DNA from: Nanobdellota archaeon
Lineage (GTDB): Archaea > Nanobdellota > Nanobdellia > Pacearchaeales > GW2011-AR1
Assembly: GCA_038046005.1 (NCBI GenBank)
Contig: JBBSXB010000001.1
Coordinates: 96,001-160,000 of the forward strand
Length of the DNA: 64,000 nt
Direction of reading: 5' to 3'
Of this stretch, positions 26,087 through 33,520 are shown piece after piece. Position 1 is the stretch's first letter; each line of letters opens with the position of its first letter. The notes under the pieces were generated by a model. That model was not told the origin of the DNA. It worked only from the letters and a program-made list of their open reading frames with translations, and did not search any database. A program made the position numbers and the translations under genes.

Positions 26087-26866
26087 TCAATCTTTTATTT
26101 TATTTATTCCCAGCGTTTCAAATTTATTCTGGACATGATTAAACAGCGTCGAGGAAATCAAAGGTTGATGCACTCCGGGATGTGTTTGATTATCAAATTT
26201 TACTTTTCCCAAATAAGCCTGATTAGTGAGAATTTTCTTTAGGCCGTTTACAGAAAAACCATATTTTTTTGACAGCTGTGTTAAACTTATTTTCTGGTTT
26301 AAAAAATCTTGGAATACTTCATTGACAAGGTAAGAATTTTCTGCTGGAATAAGTTTTTTATCGACCATTTTATAGCCAAATGGTGCCCTCGTTATTGGAT
26401 TTCCATCACGGGCTTTTTTATCCATACTGAACTTTGTTCTTTCCCCAGTAACATTTCTTTCAAATTCTGCAAAAGCAGATATTATATGAAACATTAACTT
26501 TCCTGAAGCGCTTGTTGTTTCAATTTTGTCCTGCAAAGATATGAAATCAACACCCCATTGTTTTAGTTTTTCTATGGTTTCTATTAAATCTCGCAAAGAA
26601 CGGGAAAATCTATCAAGTTTGTATACGAAAATTGCCTGGAATTTGTGATTTCTCGCATCTTCAAGTAACTCAACTATTTCTGGCCTACCTTTGATATCTT
26701 TGGCAGACTTACCTTCGTCTTTGTATATTCTTAGAACTTCGTAACCTAAAGCAGAAGCATAGTTTTTAAGTGCTTCTTCTTGTGCCGACATCGAAATTCC
26801 ATGCTTGACTTGTTCTTCTGTTGAGACTCTTATGTAAATTGCTGCTAGGGGTTTTATTTGATTCAT
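26087..26866 (-). CDS. Serine recombinase: catalytic plus recombinase domain, lacking the Zn-ribbon/coiled-coil domain
   Basis: YIRVSTEEQ (catalytic Ser), DEGKS..RP, KLDRFSR and FAEFER, then PFGY..ILTNQAYLG..HQPLIS. Likely start is the ATG at 26866, overlapping the upstream stop (ATGA). Confidence 0.92.
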   Translation of the reverse strand: MNQIKPLAAIYIRVSTEEQVKHGISMSAQEEALKNYASALGYEVLRIYKDEGKSAKDIKGRPEIVELLEDARNHKFQAIFVYKLDRFSRSLRDLIETIEKLKQWGVDFISLQDKIETTSASGKLMFHIISAFAEFERNVTGERTKFSMDKKARDGNPITRAPFGYKMVDKKLIPAENSYLVNEVFQDFLNQKISLTQLSKKYGFSVNGLKKILTNQAYLGKVKFDNQTHPGVHQPLISSTLFNHVQNKFETLGINKIKD

Positions 26867-27513
26867 GCTTTCACGCCTATCAAAACCGTCCAAACAGGAC
26901 CAACAGATTTAATTTTCAGGTCTTGGCAATAATTTGAAAGAAGAACCTTAATGTTAGTTAAGTCTACTCTATCAAATGAAGCTTTGTCTAAGACAGTTTT
27001 GTCTTCCTTTATAGACATAACCTTAAAGCCCAAGTAGGAATAATATTTTCTTAAAAAGGTTGTTGTTCTTTTGTCTCTTTTCCAAGTGAATATCAAAATT
27101 GTGCCTCCTCTTTTTGTTACTCTTAAAATTTCTCTTAATAGTTTCTCTTTGGAATCAATGCTTCCAATGAGATTATAAGCCGCATAAGTTACGTCAAAAA
27201 AATTGTCTGGAAAAGTCATGTTGAAAGCATCCATGTTTAAAATCTCAACATTAGGAGAGTTTGCAAGATTTTTTCGAGCAATTTTTAATACTGATTCGTT
27301 ATTATCTATGCCAACAAGTTTTTTCACGAACTGAAACAACTTGTCTGCAGGTCTACCTGTCCCACAACCAACATCTAGGACAACTTTGTTTTGGCATATT
27401 TTTTTTAAAAGGTTGAACTCATATTTGAATGACTCTTTAGCCTCCTTTAATGGTTTTTCTACTGCTTTTACTTGCTCTCTGACATACTCTTGACCATAAT
27501 CTCTCTTTTCCAC
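26863..27513 (-). CDS. Class I SAM-dependent methyltransferase (UbiE-like)
   Basis: VLDVGCGTG, FPDNFFDV and EILRVTKRGG; GTG start. Confidence 0.85.
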   Translation of the reverse strand: MEKRDYGQEYVREQVKAVEKPLKEAKESFKYEFNLLKKICQNKVVLDVGCGTGRPADKLFQFVKKLVGIDNNESVLKIARKNLANSPNVEILNMDAFNMTFPDNFFDVTYAAYNLIGSIDSKEKLLREILRVTKRGGTILIFTWKRDKRTTTFLRKYYSYLGFKVMSIKEDKTVLDKASFDRVDLTNIKVLLSNYCQDLKIKSVGPVWTVLIGVKA

Positions 27514-27521
27514 ATACTTAT

Positions 27522-27580
27522 TTGTGCACTTAGGTTTAAAAAGTTATTGTGCACGTGGATTTAGGACACCCTAAGTGCGC
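27522..27580. repeat. Half-sites of the recombinase-associated repeat, bracketing the operon promoter
   Basis: TTGTGCACTTAGGTT (27522-36) and TTGTGCAC...TTAGG-ACAC-CCTAAGTGC (27547-78); GCACTTAGG and CCTAAGTGC are inverted. Confidence 0.75.
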
Positions 27581-27682
27581 GTTTTTAACGAGGGAAATGT
27601 GGTTTTTGAGGATTTTGGGAGTAATTTTATGAACTAAGATAAGCAAAGTGAAGAGAAGAAATATCTAAATAGCGTAAATAGA

Positions 27683-27988
27683 TTATTCTGCTTCTTTAGA
27701 GATTACTTTAACTAAGTCATATCTTGAAGAACTTGCGTCAGCTGGCGGATTTTTAATTTTTGTTATTTTTACTTCAAGAACATATGAATATCCTTCTTCA
27801 TAATCAAATCCATCAATAGAATTATAGAAACGTTCCCCATTCACTATCAAACACTTCATTGGGACTCCACCAACACAATCAACCTTATTTGGACCAATAG
27901 TAATGGTTTCAGTACTAGGAAAAGTTGTAAAGAGTAGTATTATTATAAAAATTATAATGTAAAACCACCATTTTTTTAGTAAATTCAT
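27683..27988 (-). CDS. DUF4377-like membrane-anchored/secreted protein
   Basis: N-terminal TM, CVGGVPMKCL, FYNSIDGFDYEEGYSY.L.V and PPADASS..Y.L. Confidence 0.8.
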   Translation of the reverse strand: MNLLKKWWFYIIIFIIILLFTTFPSTETITIGPNKVDCVGGVPMKCLIVNGERFYNSIDGFDYEEGYSYVLEVKITKIKNPPADASSSRYDLVKVISKEAE

Positions 27989-28050
27989 AATTAGTTTAAT
28001 AAAACAGAGTTTAAAATATTTCCCCTAAAATTTTCCAATTTCTTTTGTGA

Positions 28051-28083
28051 CCTGCCATGGTTGTGCACTTAGGTTGGCTAAGT
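28051..28083 (+). repeat. 33-bp direct repeat copy 1, candidate recombination site
   Basis: CCTGCCATGGTTGTGCACTTAGGTTGGCTAAGT; internal inverted repeat CACTTAG-N5-CTAAGT(G). Confidence 0.9.
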
Positions 28084-28163
28084 GAATACGCAAAATACAG
28101 AGATATTAGAAAAAAAATTGAAATAAGTTTAAAGAAAAAATAAAATTAAAGATCGAACTGGAA

Positions 28164-28331
28164 CTATTTCTTTCTCGATTGATAGTTTCTCATCAATTTG
28201 CCTACACCTACAATGAGCCAAGCCAAAGCAATTAGCCATGCGGAAAGTGTTATACCAATATCAAGGCCAATAAGTGGTAGTATAAGTAAAACACCGACTA
28301 ATGTGACAAGCCAAGCTGTTACCTTTGCCAT
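28164..28331 (-). CDS. 55-aa two-helix hydrophobic protein (not in ORF track)
   Basis: MAKVTAWLVTLVGVLLILPLIGLDIGITLSAWLIALAWLIVGVGKLMRNYQSRKK. AGGAGGG SD and TTATAA upstream; paralog at 50627-50773. Confidence 0.8.
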   Translation of the reverse strand: MAKVTAWLVTLVGVLLILPLIGLDIGITLSAWLIALAWLIVGVGKLMRNYQSRKK

Positions 28332-28516
28332 TTCAACCCTCCTTTGATATACCCTAAAGAAAACAAGGGTTATAAGGTTTTTGCTAGCTTGAAGATTAGA
28401 GATTCAATTGTGTTATTAATTTGTAAAACATACAATTAATGCGGCGAGAGTTGGAATATTCTGATAACAATAATCTTACAAATTTCGCGCCATTTTTCGA
28501 CATCAATCTCTTTAGG

Positions 28517-28549
28517 CCTGCCACAGTTGTGCACTTAGGTTGGCTAAGT
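28517..28549 (+). repeat. 33-bp direct repeat copy 2
   Basis: CCTGCCACAGTTGTGCACTTAGGTTGGCTAAGT, 31/33 identical to 28051-28083. Confidence 0.9.
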
Positions 28550-28582
28550 ATATGCTGAGCTAGTTAAGACATGTAGAAAATG

Positions 28583-28712
28583 GTTGTTTAAACATGTGTT
28601 TTTGTGTTTAATCGACGGAAAAATTGATTAGAAATCGCTAAGAAAAACAGGTGTTGATTAGGGTGTTTGTCCGTTTAAACAGTGTTTATGGTTGTTTTAA
28701 ACAGCTGTTTTG
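28583..28712. repeat. Cluster of AAACA-N2-TGTTT palindromic boxes
   Basis: 28590 AAACATGTGTTT, 28645 AAACAGGTGTTG, 28677 AAACAGTGTTT and 28699 AAACAGCTGTTT. Confidence 0.7.
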
Positions 28713-28872
28713 CCATTAAAAATAGGGAAAAACATCATATTTTAAGACAAAAACATGCTAAAAAATAAATGAATTTCCCTCCAAAAAATTGGGTGCGAGA
28801 TAGATAAAAATTGAGGTAAGATGAAATTTACGACGTAAAAAAAGAAATATTTATAAAGGTTGAAAATCTAAA

Positions 28873-29511
28873 TTGAGTATGTTTGATTGGTTCTTTAAAA
28901 AAAGAGAGAAAAAAGAGTTAAAACACATAGAAGAAGATACAAAAAAGGGTTTTGAAAGTGTCAAAAAAGATATAACAGCTGTAATAGGATGGATCAAACA
29001 CCTAGATTCTGAGAAAAATCTGCAACAAAAAGAGATTGAAGACATAAAAGAGGATTTGTCGACGGTAAAAAATGACATTGAAAGCATTAAAAATATCATA
29101 ACTATGATGAATGAATTAAAACCTCAAGGAGTGTTTAAAACAAACAGACAGGTGTTTAAAGAACAAACACCTGTTTATGCTGTTCAAACAGTTGACCAAA
29201 CAGGCGTTCAAACACCAAATTTAAACCAATTTTCAGTAACTGAAAGAGCAATTCTATGGATTCTCTTAAACTCAGAAATGAAACTGGGATATGAAGATCT
29301 AGCTGCAATGTTGGGAAAAGAAAAGTCCACCATAAGGGGGCAGATAAATAGTATAAAACAAAAAAGTGAAAATTTGATAAGTGAAATTACTGAAAAAAAT
29401 GGAAAAAAGAGAGTATATATAAGTGAAGAAATGAGGGAAAAAATGCTGAAAAAGTCAAAAGTGAGAGTTGGAAATAAGAAAAAAACTGAGAAAAAAGAAG
29501 AAAAAGTCTGA
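28873..29511 (+). CDS. Coiled-coil plus C-terminal winged-helix protein (start may be 28879)
   Basis: Heptad-rich N-half, repeat-encoded linker, and FSVTERAILWILL..YEDLAAMLGKEKSTIRGQINSIK..KNGKKRVY HTH/wing. Confidence 0.75.
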   Translation: MSMFDWFFKKREKKELKHIEEDTKKGFESVKKDITAVIGWIKHLDSEKNLQQKEIEDIKEDLSTVKNDIESIKNIITMMNELKPQGVFKTNRQVFKEQTPVYAVQTVDQTGVQTPNLNQFSVTERAILWILLNSEMKLGYEDLAAMLGKEKSTIRGQINSIKQKSENLISEITEKNGKKRVYISEEMREKMLKKSKVRVGNKKKTEKKEEKV

Positions 29512-29708
29512 AAAGTAAGGAAAAATCAATAAAAAACGATTAAAAAAACAAAAAGTGAGAGTTAAATTACAAGAAAAACAATAAAAAATAAATTACTAAG
29601 TGAAAAGTGAGATGAAAAAATAAAAATGAATTTAAAAAGATTACAAAAGTCTGAAAATGAGAGATACAATAAATGGTAAAAACATAGTTAAAAATAGAAA
29701 AATGAGAG
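29456..29708 (+). repeat. A-rich array of AAAA(G)TGAGA / AAAAGTCTGAAAA direct repeats
   Basis: Copies near 29456, 29502, 29550, 29602, 29645 and 29698 in a strongly purine-skewed segment running from the 3' end of 28873-29511 into the intergenic gap. Confidence 0.6.
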
Positions 29709-29853
29709 AAAAATAAACTTTGAAAAATTGGACTAACTTGAAAAATTAAAAAATAGGCTTTTTAGGGGCTAAAAAGACAAAATTTATAGGTATGAAAAAA
29801 TAAACAAGAAGAAAATGTTCTATTAGAAATTGTTTTGTTGAACGAATAACTAT

Positions 29854-30585
29854 TTACAATTCTCTAAGTTTTAATATTGTTTGAAGGGAGGCAATTTTCT
29901 TTAAGCCGGCTGAAACGTTTAAATGGACATTCTTATTGTTAAGTTTGATTTTATCGACGGGAATTCCCTTTGAGATGATCTTACTGATATAATCTCTTAT
30001 GGAGCTTTCAGTAAGGTTAAGCTTCAGGGCAATGGCCTTATAATCAGCATATCCTTGCTCTTCCTCTAGCTGGTATAATGTTGAAAATACTAAAATTTCC
30101 TTTTCTGTAAGCTTCTTGAATTTCAGCCTTATTTCTTTTTTTAAGGTATCTAAAGATTCAAGTATTTTGGAGGCATCGTGAAGGGTAGTTTTGGGAATCT
30201 CTAAAGGAAAAATCAAGCTATTTTGTGTCTGTTGGTCTGTCTGTTGGTCTGTCTGTCTGTCTGCTGGAACCCCATCATTTCCTATGGAAATAGCTTGATT
30301 TTGGGGTTTTAAAGCCTTAAAAGACTCATTATCTGCTGGGCTTTGTGTTGAGGTTGTCTTATTCTCCAAACTATGTGATGGAGTTAAAAAAGTTGAATTT
30401 TGAAGTATTTTAGAAGAAATAGAAATTAATTCCCTGTTTAAATCCTTTAACTCTCTAACCTCTTCCCCTAAATTGGAAAGTTTCCAATTCAACTCCACTA
30501 GGTTGGTTTTTAGAGAATTTAACTCGTAACTAAGAGAAGAGATGTCTTGTTTAACTTTTTGAAAGGCCTCTTTTATCTCATCCAT
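29854..30585 (-). CDS. Coiled-coil plus C-terminal winged-helix protein
   Basis: Heptad N-terminus, GNDGVPADRQTDQQTDQQT linker, and LTEKEILVFSTLY..YKAIALKLNLTESSIRDYISKIISKG HTH. Confidence 0.75.
   Translation of the reverse strand: MDEIKEAFQKVKQDISSLSYELNSLKTNLVELNWKLSNLGEEVRELKDLNRELISISSKILQNSTFLTPSHSLENKTTSTQSPADNESFKALKPQNQAISIGNDGVPADRQTDQQTDQQTQNSLIFPLEIPKTTLHDASKILESLDTLKKEIRLKFKKLTEKEILVFSTLYQLEEEQGYADYKAIALKLNLTESSIRDYISKIISKGIPVDKIKLNNKNVHLNVSAGLKKIASLQTILKLREL
30226..30267. repeat. Intragenic TGTCTG(T/C)TGG / GTCT tandem repeats
   Basis: TGTCTGTTGG at 30226 and 30238, TGTCTGCTGG at 30258, with a related TATCTGCTGG at 30330. Confidence 0.7.
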
Positions 30586-30634
30586 TTTAATTTATAATAA
30601 AAAGAGTATAAAAAGATTATAGTAATGGAGAATA

Positions 30635-30913
30635 TTAAAAATTTTGAGGTTGACTTTTTTTATAGGAGGAATAAGCTTCATCGCTTAATTTCCACCGGGA
30701 TCTTCTTAGATAGACTTTTCCGAGTGGATTTTTGTTTACCTCTACAATAAGTTTCTTGGCTTTCAGATCCTTGAGAAGTCTTTTAACAAATTCCTCATCC
30801 CGAGCTATTTCTCTTGCTACATAATACGTAAACATAGGTTGGGGTGAAACAGAATAGAGAAAAGCTAGAATCTGTTCGCATATCTTCTGCTTTTTCTCTT
30901 TTGATATGTACAT
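30635..30913 (-). CDS. Small winged-helix-like protein (likely start MYISKEKK at 30913)
   Basis: EQILAFLY..MFTYYVAREIARDEEFVKRLLKDLKAKKLIVEV HTH-like pattern. Confidence 0.65.
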   Translation of the reverse strand: MYISKEKKQKICEQILAFLYSVSPQPMFTYYVAREIARDEEFVKRLLKDLKAKKLIVEVNKNPLGKVYLRRSRWKLSDEAYSSYKKSQPQNF

Positions 30914-30971
30914 TAAAGGAAAAATAAAAGGGTTTATATAAAGGTTTTTGAAAGAAAGATTATTATGGGGG

Positions 30972-31388
30972 TTAATTCTCAATCTCGTCCTTTTTTAAAG
31001 AAGGTAATTGAATATGGAGGGGTATGCCCAGCTCTTCTTCTAATTGAAGCGCCTTGAGGGTCGATTTCCTTAAAATAGAGTTAAGGATAAAGAGATTGAA
31101 GGCTTCTGGAGCATTTTTATCCTTCCATGTACTCAACACTTCTTTGGATATTTTAGGGTCAACAGAAACAAGAGTATTTCCCTCAAAAAAGATCTTGGCG
31201 AAGTCCGGTTCATAATTAAGAGAAAAACTGAATTTCAAGTTCAAAAGAGATTCTTTAGAGTTAAATATATCTGCCTTAGCTTCACTGATATCGAGTATAT
31301 CCATTTTGGTGTTTATATTTACACCTTTAAAGTTGGTGGAATTTCGTTCCGCGTTTATCCTTGTAAAATTAAATCCTAAGAGTTTCAT
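30972..31388 (-). CDS. Conserved hypothetical protein, possible SecB-like fold
   Basis: Beta-rich 138-aa protein ending in helix plus PLHIQLP. The fold is only an inference. Confidence 0.55.
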   Translation of the reverse strand: MKLLGFNFTRINAERNSTNFKGVNINTKMDILDISEAKADIFNSKESLLNLKFSFSLNYEPDFAKIFFEGNTLVSVDPKISKEVLSTWKDKNAPEAFNLFILNSILRKSTLKALQLEEELGIPLHIQLPSLKKDEIEN

Positions 31389-31427
31389 ACTAAATGGTAA
31401 AGAAAATTATTTTTAAATATTTAGGTA

Positions 31428-31697
31428 CTAAATTAAGTCTTCCTCAGATACTATAACAAAATCGCCTATGGCGATTATAGCACTATAAGGGACTAATAAG
31501 TCATTTGAAGAAGTTTTTTCAAGATTTAAGTTCCTCGTGTAAGGTGTTGCATCTTTAACAACTAAACTGATAAGCTCACCAGATCTAGTCTCAAAGGTAA
31601 CATCTTTGACAAAACCAAGTCTTTTACCCTCTTTCGTGACAATCATCTTGCCTAAAAGCGCACTAAATGGATTTTTATTGTCTTGCATGTTAAGCAT
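31428..31697 (-). CDS. PRC-barrel domain protein (CdpB-like)
   Basis: LLGKMIVTKEGKRLGFVKDVTFETRSGEL..VPYSAIIAIGDFVIV. Confidence 0.85.
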   Translation of the reverse strand: MLNMQDNKNPFSALLGKMIVTKEGKRLGFVKDVTFETRSGELISLVVKDATPYTRNLNLEKTSSNDLLVPYSAIIAIGDFVIVSEEDLI

Positions 31698-31788
31698 AGA
31701 AGAGATTTGTTTATAAATTTTTCTGTACCAACAAATAGATTTGAAAGAATATAGATAACTGGATTAATGGAAGATAATAACGAGCAGA

Positions 31789-32297
31789 CACACTCCTTGA
31801 TTTCGTTTGGAAAAGATTTATAAAGGATTTTTTAATTTTTTTTGTTTTTGTTTTATTTATAAATTTTTCTATAATAATATAATATAATATAATATAATTA
31901 ACTTATCTTGAATTATTATTATTATTATTATTATTATTAATTTGTATTAAGCCGCTAATTTTATTGTGGGATTTAAAAGAACAAAATGCTAATCTGGAGT
32001 TCACAAGGACTTTAATGGTTCTTATTCATGATAGTTATTATTAAATTTTCTAACAAAAGATATTCCAATCTCCCATATAACATTAAAGTTGAAGTTTTAA
32101 AAATTAAAATTATCATAAAAGCCATGATAACTTATATTTACCAATAATCATCTTATCTTTAAAGAAGCGTTTTCCATTAGAAATTAAGGCGTCTTTCTTT
32201 CTTAGTAGTCATAATCCTTTATAAAAAGAATACTTCTTTTTCCGTTGAGGAAATTTTTGAATAAACAATCTCCAGTGGAAATTAGCGTGTGGGTGTG
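31789..32297. other. Chromosomal replication origin (oriC): ORB elements flanking an AT-rich DUE
   Basis: Inverted ORB at 31789-31813 (rc TTTCCAAACGAAATCAAGGAGTGTG); ORBs at 32171-93 (TTTCCATTAGAAATTAAGGCGTC) and 32269-97 (TCTCCAGTGGAAATTAGCGTGTGGG); near-pure AT tract at about 31830-31950; directly upstream of cdc6. Confidence 0.85.
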
Positions 32298-32308
32298 AAA
32301 AGAATAAA

Positions 32309-33520
32309 ATGACTAACGAACTAGACCAAATTTTTGAATCGTTTACGAAAAATAATATTTTCAAAGATAAATCTCTATTACAGGCCTCATATAAACCGGA
32401 CAAAATTCTTCATAGAGATCAACAAGTCAACCAGATTGCGTCTATTTTAGCCCCCGTTCTCCGAGGAGAGAAAACCAGTAATTTATTTCTTTATGGAAAA
32501 ACTGGGACTGGGAAAACCCTTTCTGTTTATTATGTTAGGGAAGAATTGATGAAGAGAATTAATAAAAGCGAGGATTTTAAATTGAGAATAGAATATCTCA
32601 ATTGTAAATTAAAGAAAGTTTCAGACACCGAATATAGAATTTTGGCAGAACTTGTAAAGAAATTTGGTGGAGAAGTGCCTGCAACGGGGCTTCCTACAGA
32701 GTCTGTTTATAATAAATTTATAGAACTCATAGACAAAGAGAAACAAATTATAGTCTTGATTTTAGATGAGATTGATCAAACTGTCAAAAAGATTTCTAGC
32801 GATTTTTTGTACAACCTAACAAGGTTAAACTCAGAACTTTCAAAAACGCAACTTTGCATTGTTGGAATAAGCAACAATTTGACTTTTTTGGAGGAACTTG
32901 ACCCAAGAGTCAGGAGTTCCTTATCTGAAGAAGAAATTGTTTTTCCACCTTATAATGCTTTACAACTTAAAGATATCTTAAACCGGAGATCAGAGCACGC
33001 ATTCAAGGAAGGAGTTTTACAACCTGGAGTCATTGACAAATGCTCGGCTTTTGCAGCAAGGGAGCATGGTGATGCAAGAAGGGCCTTGGACCTTTTGCGA
33101 ATTGCTGGTGAGCTGGCCGAAAGGGAAGGGAGTAAAAAAATTTTGTTAAAACATATTGATGAGGCAAATGACAAAATTGAGAAAGACAAAATACTAGATG
33201 TTATAAAAACAGAGCCAAAACAATTCCAACTTGTTCTTTACTCTATAATGAAACTTTCAGACAAAAAAAACGGAGAGCCCCTGTTTACTGGAGATGTCTA
33301 TAATTTGTATCAGGAAATTTGTTTAAAAAATAAACTAGAAGTTTTAACCCAAAGAAGGATGAGTGACATAATCCAGGAATTTGACATGTTGGGGATTATT
33401 AATGTTAAGGTTATTTCAAAGGGGAGAGGGGGGAGGATGAGAGAAATTAAACTGGCTATCTCGAAGGATGTTCTCTTCAAAGCAAGAGAAATTGTTGAAG
33501 ATTCTTTAGATTATAAATAA
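32309..33520 (+). CDS. cdc6: Orc1/Cdc6 replication initiator
   Basis: YGKTGTGKT, ILDEID, DPRVRSSL, GDARRALDLLR and a wHTH C-terminus. Confidence 0.97.
   Translation: MTNELDQIFESFTKNNIFKDKSLLQASYKPDKILHRDQQVNQIASILAPVLRGEKTSNLFLYGKTGTGKTLSVYYVREELMKRINKSEDFKLRIEYLNCKLKKVSDTEYRILAELVKKFGGEVPATGLPTESVYNKFIELIDKEKQIIVLILDEIDQTVKKISSDFLYNLTRLNSELSKTQLCIVGISNNLTFLEELDPRVRSSLSEEEIVFPPYNALQLKDILNRRSEHAFKEGVLQPGVIDKCSAFAAREHGDARRALDLLRIAGELAEREGSKKILLKHIDEANDKIEKDKILDVIKTEPKQFQLVLYSIMKLSDKKNGEPLFTGDVYNLYQEICLKNKLEVLTQRRMSDIIQEFDMLGIINVKVISKGRGGRMREIKLAISKDVLFKAREIVEDSLDYK

Follow-up and report, generated by a model that had tools for sequence, protein, structure and literature searches.

Frozen synonymous codons in the predicted disordered linkers of two winged-helix genes beside orc1/cdc6 in a Nanobdellota archaeon

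The window analyzed here is a stretch of 64,000 nucleotides from the genome of a Nanobdellota archaeon (874,611 bp, 33% GC, 15 contigs), in which two convergent genes, referred to as gene 1 and gene 2, lie close to orc1/cdc6. Both encode an N-terminal helix, a linker, and a C-terminal winged helix. Because synonymous codons are frozen across species in the linkers and free in the winged helices, it can clearly be stated that selection in the linkers acts on nucleotides. The motifs concerned are common to coding and non-coding DNA, the one in gene 2 resembles an archaeal origin recognition box (ORB), and the pair is linked to the origin region in related species. We regard it as likely that the constraint in the linkers is on protein-binding DNA elements. 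The whole of our best explanation, to which we give a probability of about 55%, is that the linker-coding DNA does double duty and carries elements of the origin region, for which candidate binders can be named, the linker peptides being largely a by-product.

For the codon analysis, 80 orthologous loci from different species were retrieved as a near-family sample. The codon alignment of gene 1 comprises 76 sequences (L017, L055, L066, L069, and L077 were left out of the 80 loci because ORF detection failed there), and that of gene 2 comprises 75 (of 79 loci in which gene 2 was matched, five were left out). Over all species pairs, the same amino acid is encoded by the identical codon with a frequency of 0.847 in the gene 1 linker vs 0.572 in the gene 1 winged helix, and of 0.908 vs 0.481 in gene 2, the freeze being stronger in gene 2. 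The glutamines 103, 107, and 111 of the gene 1 linker are encoded by CAA in 75/75, 74/74, and 74/74 sequences of the 76 orthologs, Ala101 by GCT in 50/50, and Gly105 by GGT in 47/48; exceptions in codon choice are Gln91 (CAG in 43/44) and Val92 (GTG in 37/42). The codon entropy of the gene 1 winged helix is close to the family background (Leu 2.2 vs 2.24, Gly 1.93 vs 1.79, Ser 2.35 vs 2.32). The gene 2 linker is fixed at Ser100 (TCC 74/74), Gly102 (GGA 72/72), Gly105 (GGG 73/74), Val106 (GTT 69/69), Thr108 (ACA 69/69), Asp109 (GAC 69/69), Arg110 (AGA 60/60), and Gln111 (CAG 71/73). Several of these fixed codons are rare in this AT-rich lineage, as judged by their usage in the gene 1 family (TCC 5%, GGG 16%, GAC 22%, CAG 25%). 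Windows of eight alignment columns with a codon-entropy deficit below -0.8 bit number 16 in gene 1 and 15 in gene 2 and are all inside the linkers; there are none in the six neighbors that served as controls (orf115, orf138, the PRC-barrel gene, cdc6, the PolD small subunit gene, and the recombinase gene). Suppressed synonymous change in the linkers had been predicted by a first-pass annotation made from the sequence, and it is present, with free winged-helix domains; conservation at the amino-acid level with free synonymous change, which the same annotation had named as evidence to the contrary, is clearly not what is seen. Furthermore, contigs of other organisms from four metagenome runs pile up exactly on the frozen stretches.

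AlphaFold2 models based on family alignments divide the gene 1 product into a helix (aa 2-80), the linker (81-119), a winged helix (120-190), and a Lys-rich tail, and the gene 2 product into a helix (aa 2-63), the linker (64-132), and a winged helix (135-242), in agreement with the shared plan of helix or coiled coil, linker, and winged helix-turn-helix (HTH) that had been proposed for both. The predicted local distance difference test score is <50 over most of the gene 1 linker and in the gene 2 linker, and both linkers are predicted to be disordered though near-invariant in sequence. Homologs of the locus genes (1904 were found for gene 1 and 1771 for gene 2) come from metagenome-assembled genomes of Nanoarchaeota/Nanobdellota labeled Pacearchaeota or Woesearchaeota. 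No Pfam or NCBIfam model exceeds its cut-off for either protein: the top Pfam scores are those of HTH_11 (15.3 and 19.3 bits) and HTH_36 (19.4 bits), each with a cut-off of 25, NCBIfam Sta1 reaches 18.9 bits vs a cut-off of 80, and HTH_ParB 14.2 bits vs 22.6. The proteins are therefore outside both the ParB profile and the profiles of the MarR/winged-helix regulator family, with a fold that is still a winged helix; the best Foldseek matches of the gene 1 model are MarR-type winged helices (MepR 3eco/4lll, E 6e-4). A search of PDB sequences with the gene 2 profile gave generic HTH and coiled-coil matches only (E >=0.003), and at E <=0.001 none of 2063 candidates was a fused or longer form of gene 1, a result of little weight. 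The two proteins show no significant similarity to each other in BLASTP (best E 0.14). Homology of their N-terminal helices is revealed only when profiles are compared (hhalign probability 90.5%, E 1.3e-6), and the two genes are therefore probably old paralogs.

The frozen stretch of gene 1 is built from palindromes (Table 1). Its consensus starts with AAA CAG GTG TTT AAA ACA CCy AAA CAG GTG TTT AAy AAA and continues with CAA ACA GCT GTT TAT GCT GTT CAA ACA GGT GTT CAA ACA GGT GTT CAA ACA CCA AAT TTA, in which one DNA word is read in two frames, namely as AAA CAG GTG TTT (KQVF) and as cAA ACA GCT GTT Tat (QTAVY). AAACAG[GC]TGTT(T) is found at +237, +258, +277, +298, and +310 from the gene 1 ATG, and the linker has between one and five good copies per species; copy number thus differs between species and two frames are used, in keeping with the first-pass expectation of a variable copy number or frame. 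Among 25 sequences, the x codon of QTxVY is CCT nine times, GCT nine times, and GGT seven times, and such a free site center would fit the uncontacted middle of a protein site, not a selected hairpin.

The palindromes of the window lie where the first-pass annotation had placed them, but their uniform AAACA-N2-TGTTT form did not stand: only the copies at 28590, 28699, and 29165 are exact, and the spacer at 28677 is one base long. When up to one mismatch is allowed, the pattern is not significantly enriched over the whole window (17 vs 11.8 expected; 8 of 100 shuffles reach 17). The exact palindromes are clustered, as all three of the window and three of the seven in the genome lie in 28590-29176, that is, within 590 bp, and four of the five genome-wide strand-hits of AAACAG[GC]TGTT fall in 28300-30650. 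Among the orthologous loci, the word has 214 strand-hits in 44,660 nt of upstream DNA, 290 in 47.3 kb of gene 1, and 50 in 753,160 nt elsewhere, with perfect palindromes scored on both strands, and the predicted enrichment relative to the rest of the genome and to flanking DNA is borne out.

Upstream of gene 1, the same half-sites form a non-coding array. In the loci with at least 450 nt of upstream DNA, to which the upstream analyses were restricted (n=74), the palindrome word occupies -100 to -300 from gene 1, and the almost universal GGCTGTTTAAACAGCC is located near -175 in most loci. Adjacent upstream sites are spaced in multiples of 10.8 bp (R 0.47), which is matched by 0 of 2000 random sets, a significance that is overstated because the species are kin. 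A conserved ...CAAAACATTTTTAAA is found ~30 nt before the gene 1 ATG of the orthologs. Judged by the inferred transcription start, the gene 1 mRNA is probably leaderless, and the palindromes of the array are probably untranscribed because they are upstream of this conserved TATA box, which in the window precedes the ATG by 29 nt.

Further repeats were observed in the DNA upstream of gene 1. The motif T[AT]ATCGACGG[AG]AA occurs on the + strand at 28609-28621, upstream of gene 1, and at 29951-29963, in the winged-helix codons I-P-V-D-K of gene 2, which are partly frozen (P CCC 47/71, V GTC 42/51, K AAA 70/75); it lies near -258 in 29 of the 74 orthologous loci, and two of its five genome copies are in the 2.35-kb stretch 28300-30650. 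Repeats of ATGTG[CT]TGGAAT are located between -450 and -100 in many species (e.g., L003, L004, L005, L007, L016, and L025) and are the reverse complement of ATT CCA ACA CAT ('IPTH'), which is recurrent in the gene 2 linker. A subset of loci has a full box, TTCCAYAGGAAA-N4-GGGG/GGTC-TTCGACACAT, near -130 of gene 1 (5-6 loci by the strict pattern). The window is devoid of both the ATGTG[CT]TGGAAT repeats and a full box upstream of gene 1.

The gene 2 linker is organized differently. Its frozen core has the consensus aTT TCC Acn GGA AAt gaa GGG GTT cCa ACA GAC AgA CAG ACA, the first part of which (aTT TCC Acn GGA AAt) is the dyad consensus of the 75 orthologs. In the long ORBs of Sulfolobus and Aeropyrum, a G-rich string follows a few bases 3' of the dyad, and the gene 2 box likewise has GGGG 3 nt past GGAAAT. 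The dyad itself (TTTCCATAGGAAAT, 30278-30291, minus strand) contains the TTCC and GAA motifs that were described as the invariant core of the Pyrococcus ORB and mini-ORB repeats (Matsunaga et al. 2007, PMC1904270). The sole genome match of TTCC-N3-GGAAA[TC]GA-N-GGGG is the element in the gene 2 linker, and in near-family loci 67 of the 74 matches of the ORB pattern fall in the gene 2 linker, every one of them on the coding strand. Moreover, the gene 2 box shares its sequence type with the boxes beside the organism's own orc1/cdc6. It looks like an Orc1/Cdc6-type site rather than a gene 2-specific iteron, and the most conserved element of its linker, which the first-pass annotation had not noted, has the core of the cdc6-adjacent boxes instead. 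The proposal that each protein binds its own gene found no support.

The motif TGTCTG(T/C)TGG, from which the gene 2 linker had been said to be built, is present and corresponds to an in-frame tetranucleotide repeat placed behind the ORB-like box. Tandem Repeats Finder reports the tract with a period of 12 at 100% matches and as TGTC with a period of 4 and 9.5 copies. Across orthologs, the freeze extends to its codons T ACA, D GAC, and Q CAG. In other families, the same place is taken by other units, including (CAAA)n, (CCAA)n, (CAAT)n, (CATT)n, (TCAC)n, and (GCAC)n, and exact period-4 runs in the 75 orthologs measure 4-40 nt, most commonly 12-16 nt. The contigs of the four metagenome runs end at the tract (30231-30268), where the repeat length is unreadable. 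An inverted repeat, AGTTATTCG-N-CGAATAACT, adjoins the gene 2 stop in most orthologs and is degenerate in the window (GTTGAACGAATAAC, 29829-29853); it may be a terminator hairpin or a further binding site.

Gene 2 is the last gene of a minus-strand run of the same direction (PRC-barrel gene, orf138, orf115, gene 2). Beyond the PRC-barrel gene follow a 610-bp spacer and then cdc6 and the PolD subunits, whose presence next to the pair had been noted before and is confirmed by Pfam; the start of cdc6 is 1.7 kb from the start of gene 2 and 3.4 kb from that of gene 1. The cdc6-proximal ORB is inverted relative to the gene 2 element, with AT repeats between the two. Boxes of the type TTTCCAYAGGAAAT are present in 41 of 55 near-family loci at 30-60 bp and again at ~130-200 bp before cdc6, and related boxes are found beside AT repeats upstream of cdc6 in five distant genomes. 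In published archaeal origins, inverted ORBs closely flank an AT-rich unwinding element (PMC12141716), and because of this layout the AT repeats at 31828-31940 are a candidate, and likely, unwinding element of the origin. The AT-rich spacer between gene 1 and gene 2 was also considered as a universal unwinding element and was dropped, as distant pairs abut or overlap. The cdc6-proximal boxes are of two kinds, with the dyad followed by GTGTG/GTGGG in 24 of the 55 loci and by GGYGTY, the gene 1 half-site, in 14 of the 55 (background ~0.002 per nt), which may be taken as a speculative hint that accessory proteins bind beside Orc1/Cdc6.

Table 1. Features of the locus (positions are those of the window)
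Feature	Position	Strand	Sequence	Remark
Gene 1	28879..29511	+		open reading frame (ORF), 210 aa
Gene 2	29854..30585	-		ORF, 243 aa
orc1/cdc6	32309..33520	+		Pfam Cdc6_C 5.5e-27, Cdc6_lid 1.6e-26
Frozen linker-coding DNA, gene 1	29128..29235	+	array of AAACA-NN-TGTTT / GTTCAAACAGGT units	aa 84-119
Upstream non-coding array	28583..28712	.	same half-sites as gene 1 linker	copies at 28590, 28645, 28677, 28699
Palindrome	28590		AAACATGTGTTT	exact AAACA-N2-TGTTT
Palindrome	28645		AAACAGGTGTTG	one mismatch
Palindrome	28677		AAACAGTGTTT	spacer 1 base instead of 2
Palindrome	28699		AAACAGCTGTTT	exact
Palindrome	29146		AGACAGGTGTTT	one mismatch
Palindrome	29165		AAACACCTGTTT	exact
Palindrome	29198		AAACAGGCGTTC	two mismatches
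Palindrome, extra copy	29186		AAACAGTTGACC	degenerate
TATA box	28850..28857	+	TTTATAAA	29 nt ahead of gene 1 ATG
ORB-like element, gene 2 linker	30270..30291	-	ATTTCCATAGGAAATGATGGGG (core TTCCATAGGAAATGATGGGG)	encodes I-S-I-G-N-D-G
Tetranucleotide repeat, gene 2 linker	30226..30265	-	CAGA/CCAA on coding strand	in-frame (QTD[RQ])n
cdc6-proximal ORB	32270..32295	+	CTCCAGTGGAAATTAGCGTGTGGGTG (CTCCAGTGGAAAT)	14 nt ahead of cdc6 ATG
AT-only simple repeats	31828..31940	.	(ATAAT)5, (ATT)9, plus TTTTTG/TTTTTTAATT runs	PRC-barrel-cdc6 spacer
Direct repeats	29458, 29552, 29604, 29654, 29699 (29458..29708)	+	AAA[AG]TGAGA[GT]	five copies ~45-95 bp apart; 5/31 genome matches

Of 301 genomes sampled from the phylum, 46 have a detected member of the gene 1 family; for the family to which the window belongs, the figure is 11 of 12. 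A convergent gene 2 lies downstream in 79 of the 80 near-family loci (the exception ends 604 nt past the gene 1 start), and cdc6 lies beyond it, at a median of 3.3 kb, in 53 of the 55 loci that extend far enough, as the proposed linkage of orthologs to cdc6 requires. A distant-family sample consists of 13 loci with 27-40% protein identity, in which the pair is still adjacent and convergent and often overlaps. In spite of this low identity, the gene 2 box persists, with the same codons, (A)GT TCC AyA GGA AAT GAA GGG GTy, in 12 of the 13 loci. The gene 1 linkers of the distant loci carry a tandem GTCCAAACAGCT array, replaced by GTCCAAACACGT in two loci, a symmetric change that preserves the ACA-NN-TGT palindrome. 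Tight linkage to the origin holds in the near family and fails in the distant families, where the pair lies 5-24 kb from cdc6 and, in the families examined, lacks the upstream palindrome arrays. In four distant genomes, cdc6 shares a contig with the pair, at distances of 5.3, 7.4, 8.2, and 23.5 kb; a fifth has the two on separate contigs. Since the box and the linker arrays are kept where cdc6 is far away and the upstream arrays are missing, the embedded elements belong to the genes themselves, and tight cdc6 linkage and the upstream arrays are near-family traits. In the related loci L041 and L043, the pair is present, orf115, orf138, the PRC-barrel gene, and cdc6 are missing within 6.5 kb downstream, and additional palindrome sites occur 0.7-3 kb upstream.

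According to our best explanation, both linker-coding segments would at the same time be the code for a disordered linker and a set of predicted protein-binding elements of the origin region. The gene 2 linker would supply one ORB-type box (the dyad TTCC-N3-GGAA, then GGGG) with the lineage-specific tetranucleotide tract adjoining it, and Orc1/Cdc6 is the most likely binder of this box because of the sequence likeness and the published biology of ORBs. The gene 1 linker would supply 3-5 tightly packed ACA-NN-TGT palindromes, and the upstream copies would be phased on one helix face. The most likely binder of the palindromes is a winged-helix dimer, and the gene 1 product is the obvious candidate because the palindromes are shared with the gene's own upstream region and nearly confined to the locus. 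Throughout the class, the gene 1 recognition helix (STIRGQIN) and the ACA-NN-TGT core are equally invariant. The gene 2 helix (ESSIRDY, ESGVRHY, or GCIRSY) and the tetranucleotide units both vary, but phylogeny confounds this correlation. By binding both arrays, the gene 1 protein could regulate itself and in addition form a local nucleoprotein array. As a disordered linker accepts almost any sequence, the codons could be dictated by selection on the DNA, and the peptides QTxVYAVQTGVQTGVQTPNL and ISTGNEGVPTDRQTD would largely be a by-product. We infer the identities of the binders, as well as a role in the control of initiation or the organization of the origin rather than in plain transcription control.

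Several observations weigh against this explanation. The inverted orientation of the boxes resembles that in published origins, yet the gene 2 box lies ~1.5 kb from the AT repeats with three genes in between, and this distance far exceeds that of described origins. In the 13 distant loci, the gene 2 box is alone within ~9 kb and has no cdc6 within 4 kb, and therefore it is not an arm of a compact origin consisting of ORB, unwinding element, and ORB there. As the upstream arrays are missing in the distant families, self-regulation through such arrays is not universal. GC skew on the window's contig tracks gene strand, has no turning point here, and is uninformative for an origin. A symmetric site of a homodimer does not predict that AAACAGGTGTT is strand-specific, with 45 copies in non-coding DNA vs 4 of its complement, or that the AAAGTGAGAG motif is on one strand only. 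Adjacent palindrome units can also pair as RNA or single-stranded DNA, with folding z-scores of -3.84 (L003) and -2.58 (L095). Finally, the sampled species are kin, and cross-species counts and the periodicity test overstate their independence.

Ordinary transcriptional autoregulation without a link to replication would make gene 1 a self-repressor with auxiliary operators both upstream and within the gene, and the gene 2 box an operator, for gene 2 or another factor, that happens to look like an ORB. It would account for the clustering of the palindromes round the gene 1 promoter region, with three of the seven exact genome sites and without a wide regulon, for the MarR-like winged helix, and for distant-family pairs that are 5-24 kb from cdc6. 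We consider it unlikely, as the arrays at -100 to -300 are clear of the TATA box, in six lineages the gene 2 box shares its core with boxes immediately before cdc6, some loci have a full box and G-run upstream of gene 1 too, and the pair is on the cdc6 side of the chromosome in four of the five distant genomes. A constraint at the RNA level, in which linker hairpins of the mRNA or proteins bound to it serve, for example, an inter-domain translation pause or mRNA stability, is still less probable. The strand specificity and folding just mentioned speak for it, together with a perfect 12-bp stem in the window (29146-29157 with 29165-29176) and a central change from ACAGCTGT to ACACGTGT in two distant loci that retains self-complementarity. 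However, the same words lie 100-300 nt upstream of the TATA box and are probably untranscribed there, the central dinucleotide (CC/GC/GG) shows no preference for a pairing partner, the window itself gives weak z-scores (-1.68 and -1.29), intergenic boxes at cdc6 match the one in gene 2, and a search of 27500-32500 against Rfam with E up to 1 gave no match.

The tetranucleotide tract of gene 2 could also be a slippage-prone contingency repeat for on/off phase variation, which would be compatible with our best explanation. It is a pure tract within an ORF with period-4 runs of variable length, and the unit changes between families while the position is kept. The odds of this being its role are nevertheless slim: all 75 extracted orthologs are in frame, most tracts are short, and the tract codons are frozen across species, favoring sequence-specific selection over free slippage. 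Of all readings, the poorest is that conservation concerns the peptide only, as a functional QT-repeat linker whose codon identity follows from codon bias or an overlapping frame. The linker peptides are indeed near-invariant and both are Q-T-rich. This reading is, however, already contradicted by the codon data: rare codons are fixed, Gln is CAG at some positions and CAA at others, the winged helices have the stronger fold constraint and yet free synonymous sites, and the words recur in non-coding DNA. An overlapping ORF, whether in a different frame or on the opposite strand, was rejected as well, as any alternative frame is open across the frozen stretch in <=16/75 species.

That origin or operator elements can be located in coding DNA is already known from Pyrococcus dp1 and gene O of phage lambda. 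In Pyrococcus and Thermococcus, clusters of ORBs and mini-ORBs lie inside dp1, the gene of the PolD small subunit, and are bound by Cdc6/Orc1 (PMC1904270). Like these, the gene 2 box is an Orc1/Cdc6-type box within a protein-coding gene flanking cdc6, there is a second cluster of boxes across cdc6, and the layout is kept across an order. Unlike the clusters of Pyrococcus and Thermococcus, it is a single predicted box in the disordered linker of an uncharacterized winged-helix gene, retained even where cdc6 is 5-24 kb away and known from its sequence; in the near-family loci, dp1 contains no match of the ORB pattern. For comparison with phage lambda, the part of the O protein encoded by ori is a flexible linker. 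The origin of lambda itself lies inside gene O (PMC4488673). In both cases, a gene of the replication region that encodes a DNA-binding protein has repeated putative protein-binding sites within its coding sequence, and sequence changes there can affect the function of the DNA while sparing the protein. The differences are that the present locus is on a cellular chromosome with an Orc1/Cdc6 initiator and involves two paralogous genes, that it has 12-bp palindromes and a tetranucleotide tract instead of the 19-bp iterons of lambda, that its binders are deduced from sequence, and that the two genes contain no AT-rich unwinding segment. The repeats inside both genes are under DNA-level selection, and the encoded proteins may or may not be their binders. 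A chromosomal counterpart of lambda O in the Nanobdellota, in which two paralogs with binding arrays and an Orc1/Cdc6 box in their own linkers are loaded in cis during their synthesis and form, with Orc1/Cdc6, an origin-organizing complex, is a tentative and rather doubtful extension. If it were true, the complex could serve licensing, origin pairing, or segregation, and the pair would represent an undescribed class of archaeal origin accessory proteins and a clear case of cis elements dictating a protein segment. The proposal of a centromere or segregation system has no specific support: a Pfam scan of five flanking frames, which comprise two small upstream genes besides orf115, orf138, and the PRC-barrel gene, found no ParA-like ATPase, and the latter three are without any ATPase domain.

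Two further systems are informative. The origin oriC1 of Sulfolobus needs ucm, a non-ORB cis motif bound by the non-initiator protein UBP (Dhanaraju et al. 2025, PMC12141716), and thereby provides a model for accessory origin-binding factors at an archaeal origin. UBP is described as a general nucleoid protein with hundreds of sites, whereas the sites reported here are nearly confined to one locus and the proteins consist of a coiled coil and a winged helix. The fold of the C-terminal domain is shared with MarR regulators such as MepR. Dimeric binding to palindromes is typical of the MarR family. In contrast to that family, Pfam MarR is unmatched, dimerization would use a long N-terminal helix that is ~40-70 disordered residues away from the winged helix, and the half-site centers are only ~7 bp apart. 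A literature search that excluded subscription journals and supplements found no account of the gene pair, of DPANN origin elements, or of linker peptides fixed by embedded cis elements, and no origin layout is described in the literature found on the Woesearchaeota replication origin and Cdc6.

Two other repeat families are present at the locus. The first of the five AAA[AG]TGAGA[GT] copies lies within the frozen K-V-R-V codons near the end of gene 1, where the codons of K194 and V195 are frozen, and the other four are in the A-rich spacer between gene 1 and gene 2. In the orthologs, AAGTGAGAG matches are confined to the + strand, and 100 of 107 fall between +400 and +800 relative to the start of gene 1. 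The repeat is similar to the 3' portion of the boxes near cdc6 (A[AC]GTGTGAGG). Further upstream of gene 1, the small genes of the minus strand (DUF4377 and a 55-aa membrane protein) are separated by copies of a conserved 33-nt element, CCTGCCAyrGTTGTGCACTTAGGTTGGCTAAGT, which are located at 28051-28083 and 28517-28549 (both +) and, in partial form, near 27526 (+) and 27578 (-). Every genome copy of GCACTTAGG lies in this region, and contig joints at 28300-28549 are explained by the repeated element. The orthologous loci contain 169 copies, nearly all on the + strand; the 98 segments between copies have a median of 454 bp, and their longest ORFs form 41 clusters. A conserved serine recombinase gene (26087-26893, minus strand; Pfam Resolvase 1.4e-42) is at the far end in 50 of the 80 loci. 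The element could be a shared promoter/operator or part of an integron-like cassette array.

Replication origins of DPANN archaea have not been dissected, and the locus offers conserved and readily recognized candidate elements together with two candidate accessory proteins for an entire class of ultra-small archaea that have not been cultivated. As a natural example of a disordered linker whose sequence is fixed by its own DNA, it is also unusually clean, and it bears on how "conserved disordered motifs" are interpreted, on gene annotation, and on inference from dN/dS.

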